From the NCBI RefSeq assembly GCF_030013595.1, contig NZ_CP122769.1: a DNA stretch of 64,000 nucleotides; one strand, written 5' to 3'. The DNA comes from Escherichia coli. Lineage in GTDB: Bacteria; Pseudomonadota; Gammaproteobacteria; Enterobacterales; Enterobacteriaceae. Positions 19,101-22,100 of the stretch are shown piece after piece. Numbering within the stretch: the stretch's first letter is position 1; each line of letters begins with the position of its first letter. The position numbers were made by a program.

Positions 19101-22100
19101 AAAATGGCAGCATTAGCCGCCTCAGGAAAAATAACTTCTGAGGGTAATTCAAGGAATGAGTCACTTTTTTCAATAAACATATATTTTCCTGAACCACGGC
19201 ATATGCTGCATCACTGATATTTTTATTAGAACTTTAAAATAACTACAGCGCAACCATTTAGCGAAATTATATTAAATCAAAATCACGCAAATTTAATTCT
19301 TAAATAGATTTAAAATAAAAACCCATTGTAATTTAATCTCCCAGCACAGCTATTAGATATAGGTTGGTGGTGTAATAAAAGCCGTGACATTTGTTTTCAA
19401 CTCAGACAGCGGAATTGAAGGAGTGTTAAGAGTCATGTCATCACCACAATGGCGTGGTAGAGCAGAAAGCTGAAATGAATCTTTCATCACCCTAATAACC
19501 GGGCATTCCGTACGTGCTGATGGCATTACTTCCCGCAGCATCGCTTCCTGCCTTGTGCTATCGCTATGCTTATATTCATCCTGGTCTGTTATTTCTTGAA
19601 TTTCATCTTCACCACAAAATGACCAGTTAGCGTCATAGAAGTAAAACTCAGTTAACTGAAGATCGTTTTTTTTCACGTATGTCGCCAATTTGCGGATACG
19701 CTGTTCAAGCATTGTATCTATCCGTAAGGAAACACTTTGCGGAACATCACTTGCAAAGTCATTGATGCAAACAACGGTAGATACTATGAATTTATTGGTC
19801 ATGGCAGGCTCCAGGCCACCGGGGGAACCGGTGGCTACGGTTATCAGGCAGGCTTATGCGCCGCAAAGGGTGTCAAGGGAAGGAAGAAGCTTGCTCAGCT
19901 TGTCGTAATCGAGCGGAGACAGTTCTGTAACGAGTTCGACCGAAAGACTGGTGTTGTCTTCTTCACTCAGAATATAGATTCCGTCTTCTGGCTCTTTTCC
20001 GGCACATGCCTTCAGTCGTCTGTTAACGACCTCCTGGGCTGAATCCGCTACGTCGCAGCTCAGGACATAGCTTGCCACATAGCTGCTCTCACCGTGGTAA
20101 TGCGTCACTTTACACAGAGCATACTGGATACCGGCTTTGTGAGCCTCATTCATGAGACGAGAAAACTGACAGCCATCCTGGTAATAGTGGGTATCCTTTG
20201 TGACCAGAATAGTCATACCCCCAAATTCATCTGTCCGGCTTTTACTGCATGTAAATGCAGCAGTAATTGTTACCATTTCCGGGAGGTCGAATACCGACAG
20301 CACGGCAGTTGTGAGGCAAATTGCATGGTCAAGATCAATAGTCTCTCCATGAAAAACTGACAGCCCACTGCTGTTAACTTCTGTTGCGAACGACAGTTCA
20401 TAATTACAGTCTGGGCAGGATGGTTGCCCAAAGCTCGGCTCTGAAGGGTCATACTCAGGGTGGTTCTCAATAATACTGAGAATCAGCTTCTCAGTCAGAG
20501 AACAATCTGCCAGTGGCTTATCAAGCAAACGCTCACCTTCTGCAATTTCTGCTTCGGTAACGAATGTGATTGCTTCTTGTGCCATTTTAGCCTGCTCCTG
20601 AGTGCAGGGAATAATAAACGACGCCAGAGTATAATTATCTGCCACAGTTGACTCCTTGATTATTTAATTAATGTATTTGATGAGAAGATCATAACAAACA
20701 CACTACTACCAACTAATAACCTGAAGTCGTTTTTTTAGAAAAAATATTAAGAAGAATATGAACACCACCTCATCTTAAATTAATATTGTTCAGGATTAAT
20801 ATTCATTTTTGCAAATAAAAACCGCCAGACGGCGGCTTTTATAAAGAGGGAAATATCATTGGAAGCTGAAATTACTTCACGGCAGGCCGACAAATTACGC
20901 GACTGCTGTGAGCTGAAGCGAAACTTGTAGAGGAAACTATAATCACCTTTTCTAAGTCGTCGGCACTGTCGGCAATATGATGCCGAAAAGCCTCCTCTGC
21001 ATCACCAGGGGAATCGGCTTCGACCGGGTAGGCCTGATCATCATCATCAAACATAATGCGCCCGGAAATGAGATAAAGTCGGCTCAAATCTGGCGTCGCT
21101 GCGCTCGTGCTTCGTTCGTTCAGATTCATTTTTTCTCCGTCTGTTGCTCGTAAAAAGAATGACGCCGGTTTAAAAGGCGTCGCCAGGGTTCAGGCTAAAA
21201 CGCAGGGTTGCCATCGAGGAAGCTCATTGGCTGGCCAATAGCGGATGCCACCCTGAGAATTTCACCTGGTGTGGCATAGCGCAGCATTTCTGAGCGTCCA
21301 AATTTCTGATACTCATCTACTGACATCTTTCTCCACTCGGGGTGAGGATCTTTTCCGCACAGTGACCAGTTGCTTTCAGAGGAATCACGACGGAGAACGT
21401 ACACATCAAGCGAGGCTGTAAGCCCGCTTCCATATCCCCGCTGCGCTACAATACGAACCTGAGAACCATCGTCGCGTTGCAACGTCTGGGTTAATTTCGT
21501 GATAGGATCCTGAGAATGCATGCCATTTACCTCGTTTTTAAAAGAATTACCGTAAGTAAATGATACCGAATCGAGAATTCTGGCTAATAGGTCAGAAGAA
21601 AAAATATTGCATATTTTTGAAGTGTAGGATAATGATTAGAATAAAATGGCCTGAATAAATCGTTAGCTTTAACTCTGCTTATTTCAGAAAAACTCTGAAT
21701 TAGTAGTGATGGAAAACGACGCGGTGAAAAGTAACTTTTACACCGCAATTCAGAAAAAAGTTTCAGTTAGTCACATTACGAATAACCCGGCTTACTTTCG
21801 CATGTGCGTTCCCCTGCATGTTAAAGTAAAGCCCTCCGGGCAGACTCGTCGCCCACTTAACGCCTCGCTCAGCCATACGCTTCGGTGTTTCCAGCCAACC
21901 ACGAGGAATATTGCCCGGAACGTTACCGATAACCCGTCAAATGCATGCTGCTACCCGGATGCCGCCGGGAATATCGCATTTGGATTCAACAATATGCATG
22001 ACCTCAGATAAAGCACCATGCCGCTGGACATGATCGCCAATGTGCAACTCGATAGGAGAAGCCATTTCTGAATCTGACTTCATATCTGTCCACCTTTAAT

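Follow-up and report, generated by a model that had tools for sequence, protein, structure and literature searches.

The 64,000 nucleotides of DNA analysed here, to which we refer as the window, are part of an IncHI2 plasmid backbone and carry on the minus strand a small gene with a good ribosome binding site that is interrupted by an in-frame TGA. Such an arrangement raises the question of what the TGA means. It could be the mark of a nonsense mutation, it could separate two coupled micro-ORFs, or it could be a stop codon that is read through, and all three readings had been offered in the initial annotation of the locus. By comparing the gene with its relatives on other plasmids, we found that the TGA is a derived, single-base change in an otherwise intact gene. 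Rather than a recoding signal, the locus is an ordinary pseudogene, which very probably arose from a single nonsense mutation and became fixed in its plasmid lineage, a very common one among IncHI2 resistance plasmids.

Results and Discussion

When we read the frame directly from the minus strand of the window, the coordinates and codon counts all proved exact. The Shine-Dalgarno-like AAGGTGG (22090..22096, minus strand) stands before the start ATG (22083-22081) with a 6-nt spacer, its last G being at position −7. Codons 1–48 (21940..22083) are followed by the premature TGA as codon 49 (21937..21939), behind which codons 50–106 (21766..21936) form an open stretch of 57 sense codons that ends only at a second TGA (21763..21765). 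The ATG with AAGGTGG 7 nt upstream, the 48 codons before the stop and the 57 codons behind it, as first described, were hence all confirmed. For the window class, RefSeq annotates only the first part, as the 48-amino acid hypothetical protein WP_001426334.1. An open run of 57 codons past a stop has a chance probability of about 0.07, calculated as (61/64)^57, which is unremarkable for random sequence, so that the significance of the feature must come from the comparison with homologs.

The plasmid assignment rests on related records, which are typed IncHI2A/MOBH/MPF_F, and on a record identical to the window, in which repHI2 is located about 17 kb from the site. The disrupted gene is one of many small hypothetical genes that follow each other in the same direction in a long array, which also contains a Hok toxin. 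Between window positions 10000 and 31000 this array comprises, on the minus strand, about 35 mostly small hypothetical genes, and this part includes a 794-amino acid PAPS-reductase-family protein, an HNH endonuclease and a RelE/ParE toxin. We take the array to resemble the anti-defence and establishment gene arrays of plasmid leading regions. Immediately upstream of the disrupted gene lies a site-specific DNA methyltransferase of the orphan type, type II (22364-23614, minus strand), while the next gene downstream codes for the 108-amino acid hypothetical protein WP_000556022.1 (21195-21521, minus strand). Further away, at window positions of about 6900-8550 (5409-7035 of the identical record, L005), an IS150-family transposase lies beside a gene for a Hok-family toxin and a DUF5431 pseudogene that is truncated, as if an IS element had inserted into a locus of the hok/sok type.

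A search of PLSDB with a 901-nt probe around the site matched 986 plasmids, 588 of them with at least 99% identity and 396 with 90–95%. Nearly all are large conjugative plasmids of Escherichia, Salmonella, Enterobacter and Klebsiella. With the same probe we obtained 253 matching records among complete E. coli genomes, almost all being plasmids. A shorter probe of 441 nt resolved the PLSDB matches into three classes, with 588 records at 99% identity or above, 393 at about 95.6% and 59 at about 70%. The second class (IncHI2A, for example pOSUEC_D and pSTm-A54650; L002, L004) contains an intact 321-nt coding sequence for the 106-amino acid protein WP_000834113.1, and its stop falls exactly at the position of the second TGA of the window (L002). 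The third class, which is typed IncHI1A (L003), has an intact 309-nt coding sequence for the 102-amino acid WP_022652122.1. Both genes are found just downstream of a site-specific DNA methyltransferase, as expected for syntenic orthologs. They share with the window the slot, the start, the region of the ribosome binding site and the stop. What sets them apart from it is the Ser at codon 49 and a coding sequence for the complete single-domain protein. On this comparison we consider the feature to be real, because the intact 106- and 102-amino acid orthologs fill the same syntenic slot in related plasmids.

The three-way DNA alignment then showed what had happened at codon 49. It reads TCA in the sister IncHI2 lineage, TCG in the IncHI1A-type plasmids and TGA in the window. 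A single C-to-G exchange at window position 21938 turns the serine codon TCA into the stop, and TCA or TCG versus TGA is the only disruptive difference between the window and the orthologs. Since both other lineages have a serine codon here, TGA is the derived state and TCA the ancestral one, as the translations also indicate. The AAGGTGG motif is unchanged in the IncHI2 lineage with the intact allele. With a 56-nt probe, along which the two IncHI2 lineages differ solely in the codon-49 base, we detected the exact TGA form in 586 PLSDB records and the variant form, matching with a mismatch, in 395. The recurrence of the exact 56-mer in 586 independent plasmid records means that the TGA is not a sequencing error. 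We finally queried PLSDB with a synthetic 85-mer that combines the window-type flanking SNPs with TCA, and this combination had an exact match in none of 981 records. As sampled, the window lineage is therefore fixed for TGA, with neither an intermediate nor a revertant, and the TGA allele accounts for 586 of about 980 IncHI2 records in PLSDB.

If the stop had abolished a function, the gene should have evolved under relaxed constraint since. Compared to the intact IncHI2 allele, the gene of the window differs at 14 nucleotides (Nd 8 and Sd 5, to which the stop is added). The pN/pS value of 0.49 is the highest in the neighbourhood, compared to 0.11 for the methyltransferase and 0.00, 0.07, 0.26 and 0.37 for the other neighbours. 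We polarised the replacements with 12 outgroup proteins, using amino acid changes only, as the outgroup differs at synonymous sites. This assigned six replacements as well as the stop to the window branch as derived changes and none to the intact branch, with two being ambiguous. The derived ones are T5S, V8A and F26S in the stub, all at conserved positions, together with D54N, T56P and E83G in the remnant. In the same polarisation test the methyltransferase gave 3:4 and the upstream gene 4:4, which is balanced (together 7:8), and the asymmetry is therefore specific for the disrupted gene. The comparison of 7:0, stop included, with 7:8 in the two neighbours gives a Fisher p of 0.022, on small counts. 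Purifying selection on the window branch thus appears relaxed. Small as the numbers are, they agree in indicating that constraint was relaxed along the entire gene, the stub included. The protein WP_000556022.1, encoded by the next gene, is identical in both IncHI2 lineages, with 4 synonymous and 0 non-synonymous differences. The absence of replacements indicates that purifying selection on this gene is strong even though a premature stop precedes it, and any polarity that the nonsense mutation might exert is evidently without consequence here.

We next turn to the protein that was lost. It belongs to a family for which we obtained 18 matches in a search of 5.8 billion clustered proteins and 21 matches among 1.84 billion representatives in an exhaustive HMMER pass; it is a rare orphan family. 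The full-length homologs all have about 100–109 amino acids, and two members are extended at the N-terminus. Of the 12 outgroup members, 11 have Ser at position 49 and one has Ala, and among the homologs outside the near-identical window lineage none has an in-frame stop in this column. Proteins ending after 48 residues occur in the window lineage alone (P0018, WP_001426334.1). The two halves are conserved to the same degree, the mean major-residue frequency being 0.72 for residues 1–48 and 0.71 for residues 50–106, with at least 90% conservation in 23 of the 57 C-terminal columns. The best family motifs, IPRxW..ETP and LPxGLYWNVQGNAHA, stand after position 49, and the open remnant in the window still displays them as IPRxW..ETP..LPxGLYxNxQGNAHA. 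The homolog comparison that had been proposed as a check is in agreement with a nonsense mutation, given the intact syntenic orthologs, the derived TGA and the conservation of the lost half. Homologs that stop after the first 48 codons, which had been named as the refuting outcome, did not turn up outside the window lineage.

Three further sequences from the sister IncHI2 lineage, which are of the intact type (P0004, P0008 and P0017), shift into the +1 frame at different points; this is the frame of the window ORF 21792-21902. They represent either independent decay in other plasmids or assembly errors. Two long proteins, P0028 (1557 amino acids) and P0035 (420 amino acids), match query residues 70–89 and 73–94 in 14 and 5 separate stretches, respectively. 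The matched segment is RGxxWAxxLPxGLYxN, and both look like repeat proteins of a motif similar to the C-terminal motif of the family. For the intact protein itself, we found nothing significant in Pfam, NCBIfam, PHROGs, PADLOC or by PDB sequence profile; DUF2118 (E = 0.13) and phrog_28910 (E = 0.066) appeared as weak matches that we take as chance. What the genomic contexts of three distant members (L006–L008) have in common is limited to small genes arrayed in one direction on mobile elements, and no gene partner is conserved among them. The adjacency to the methyltransferase is confined to IncHI plasmids. Our literature search on IncHI2/R478 pseudogenes returned nothing about the disrupted gene.

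An AlphaFold2 model, built from a 22-sequence alignment, shows a confident, compact single domain (pLDDT 91.9, pTM 0.82) with strands at residues 3–8, 18–21, 24–34, 44–52, 86–91 and 97–103 and helices at 67–72 and 76–80. A conserved loop, D-x-P-G-G-x-R-x-A-A-C (residues 37–47), lies between strands 3 and 4. Codon 49 falls into the middle of strand 44–52, which is a core strand of the model, while codons 50–106 supply both helices and the last two strands. A stub that is devoid of these elements should not be able to fold alone, according to the model. The truncated part, being conserved and an integral portion of the predicted fold, is thus likely needed.

Structural matches revealed a similarity of the modelled fold to domain I of EF-P and eIF5A. 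A fold search of BFVD returned only uncharacterised phage proteins and giant-virus eIF5A, and many uncharacterised small phage proteins match the fold as well as EF-P does. Membership in the EF-P family was rejected, with an hhalign probability of 0.3% against E. coli EF-P, the sequence of which we checked against PDB 6enj_w. The Pfam scan at E ≤ 1 contained no EF-P-related family and the PDB profile search gave 0 matches at E ≤ 10. Further hallmarks of the EF-P/eIF5A N-terminal (KOW-like) domain family are a modified Lys or Arg at the tip of the β3–β4 loop and binding to the ribosomal E site. One may speculate that the ancestral family, with its about 21 representatives among 1.8 billion proteins in small-gene arrays of IncHI plasmids and phage-like contigs, is a mobile-element mimic of EF-P/eIF5A domain I that was dropped, or reduced to a trace dose by UGA readthrough, in the window lineage. 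We regard this idea as very improbable. If it were true, the protein would target host translation, or the enzymes that modify EF-P, while the element establishes itself in a new host. For the most successful IncHI2 lineage, the TGA would then mean either that the mimic was given up or that only a trace of it persists by UGA readthrough.

With the locus described, the explanations that compete with a nonsense pseudogene can be weighed. The one that we rate highest among them, although still as unlikely, is a leaky stop, in which tRNATrp or tRNACys misreads the UGA to give a low dose of an S49W or S49C protein, so that the TGA is an attenuator rather than a knockout. UGA is the most error-prone stop of E. 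coli and the frame beyond it is still open. In reporters, readthrough of premature TGAs can reach the percent range, in most cases with Trp inserted and depending on the context (PMC11126739; PMC5373646), and the base after the stop, here a C, modulates readthrough according to Poole et al. 1995, as cited in PMC5373646. High leakiness of UGA is, however, in part a peculiarity of the K-12 RF2 (PMC5373646), while the plasmids considered here live in wild isolates. The locus itself also speaks against this explanation. No relative has the TGA conserved. Each of them has Ser or Ala at position 49, where Trp would be a drastic replacement in what is modelled as a core strand. A stimulatory RNA structure is not apparent, because the 66 nt from the TGA onward fold no better than shuffled sequences (z = −0.69), and our Rfam scan of 21400-22500 contained no recoding element, only three chance-level matches (ppoRNA, mir-5391 and IS009) far below the gathering scores. 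Replacements have moreover accumulated downstream of the stop (D54N, T56P, E83G, I89M), just as expected for an unselected C-terminal half. It is possible that a trace of full-length S49W protein is formed by readthrough, but nothing suggests that it is selected for. The idea of readthrough as a programmed event is consequently unsupported, the stop being unconserved, SECIS and Rfam elements absent and the downstream RNA unremarkable. Selenocysteine insertion at the UGA is a further alternative. E. coli and Salmonella, the hosts, possess the Sec machinery and the codon is the right one. Yet we obtained 0 SECIS-family matches even at E ≤ 10, the downstream fold does not exceed that of shuffled sequences, and the ancestral residue is Ser and never Cys in the relatives. 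As the sequence downstream is the coding sequence of the intact allele apart from a few substitutions, no SECIS has evolved there, and the probability of this scenario is vanishingly small.

It could also be argued that the locus gives two products, with the 48-amino acid stub as a functional micro-protein and, optionally, a C-terminal peptide that is translated independently or by coupling. RefSeq indeed lists the 48-amino acid ORF as a protein (WP_001426334.1), and the ribosome binding site is good. Coupling would call for a start codon close by, and the suggestion of coupled micro-ORFs fails at this point, as the TGA neither overlaps with nor borders on an ATG, GTG or TTG. In frame, a start codon follows only with the ATG of codon 70 (window 21876), 63 nt or 21 codons downstream, and this ATG has no Shine-Dalgarno-like sequence. 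Among the homologs there is no split one, the stub itself took up its three replacements T5S, V8A and F26S at conserved positions, and it would terminate in the middle of a strand of a single-domain fold. We therefore judge a two-product locus to be highly improbable. The nonsense pseudogene, in contrast, is consistent with the intact orthologs, the derived stop and the replacements in both halves.

Regarding transcription, we found 0 sigma-70 promoters in the region 21400-22500 versus 2.8 expected in shuffled sequences. The 280-nt gap between the stop of the methyltransferase gene and the disrupted gene (22084-22363) is likewise without a sigma-70 consensus, and the gene may hence be co-transcribed with the methyltransferase. 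Just past the full-length stop lies a weak terminator-like element on the minus strand (21713..21747), which consists of a hairpin with a GCGGUG...CACCGC core (21747-21720) and then GUCGUUUU. The hairpin with its U-run folds with −11.6 kcal/mol (z = −1.73), and it was not called in the consensus terminator scan. As a mark of the ancestral gene boundary it is suggestive only.

Conclusion

In summary, we propose the following course of events. The ancestral gene, the immediate downstream neighbour of an orphan-type DNA methyltransferase, probably encoded a single-domain protein of about 106 amino acids. In the ancestry of the window's plasmid lineage, its codon 49 then changed from TCA (Ser) to TGA. 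Initiation presumably persists at the intact ribosome binding site and ATG, and translation would terminate after 48 residues. The resulting stub ends in the middle of a core β-strand and is missing the conserved C-terminal half, and the model predicts that the domain cannot form. Since then, the gene seems to have drifted, with replacements in both halves. That the downstream frame is still open can be explained by the event being recent relative to the mutation rate. We infer from this that the function was lost and that no selected product is left. With the ribosome binding site, the start and the downstream frame all intact, translation of the stub and of a trace of full-length protein by misreading of UGA is possible. 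The TGA lineage is evolutionarily very successful, and its loss of the gene must at least be tolerated and may even be of benefit.

The overall significance of the finding is small; it shows how automatic annotation mislabels a pseudogene as a 48-amino acid hypothetical protein. The entry WP_001426334.1, which hundreds of IncHI2 plasmids carry, deserves a flag that identifies it as the 5′ stub of a pseudogene belonging to the WP_000834113.1 family. Plasmid typing gains a clean lineage marker in the state of codon 49, TGA or TCA (586 versus 395 PLSDB records, zero intermediates). Furthermore, a globally successful IncHI2 lineage has managed to spread without this conserved small backbone gene, and such dispensability puts a modest constraint on functional hypotheses for the family.

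Compared to known systems, the ancestral protein resembles domain I of EF-P, EfpL and eIF5A, a KOW/SH3-like β-barrel, in its fold and not by family membership. Unlike EF-P it has no domains II and III, and it possesses a conserved C-terminal motif of its own. With genes subject to programmed UGA recoding, by selenocysteine or by readthrough, the locus shares the in-frame UGA and the open frame beyond, but here the stop is unconserved, a SECIS or stimulatory structure is absent and the ancestral residue is Ser. The closest parallel are the lineage-specific, unitary nonsense pseudogenes of bacterial plasmids and genomes, which likewise have one derived stop in a conserved syntenic gene with the ribosome binding site and downstream frame intact, an excess of replacements on the affected branch, and an annotation that covers only the N-terminal stub. 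From these, the gene described here differs in nothing material, and it stands out only by how widespread the mutant allele has become.
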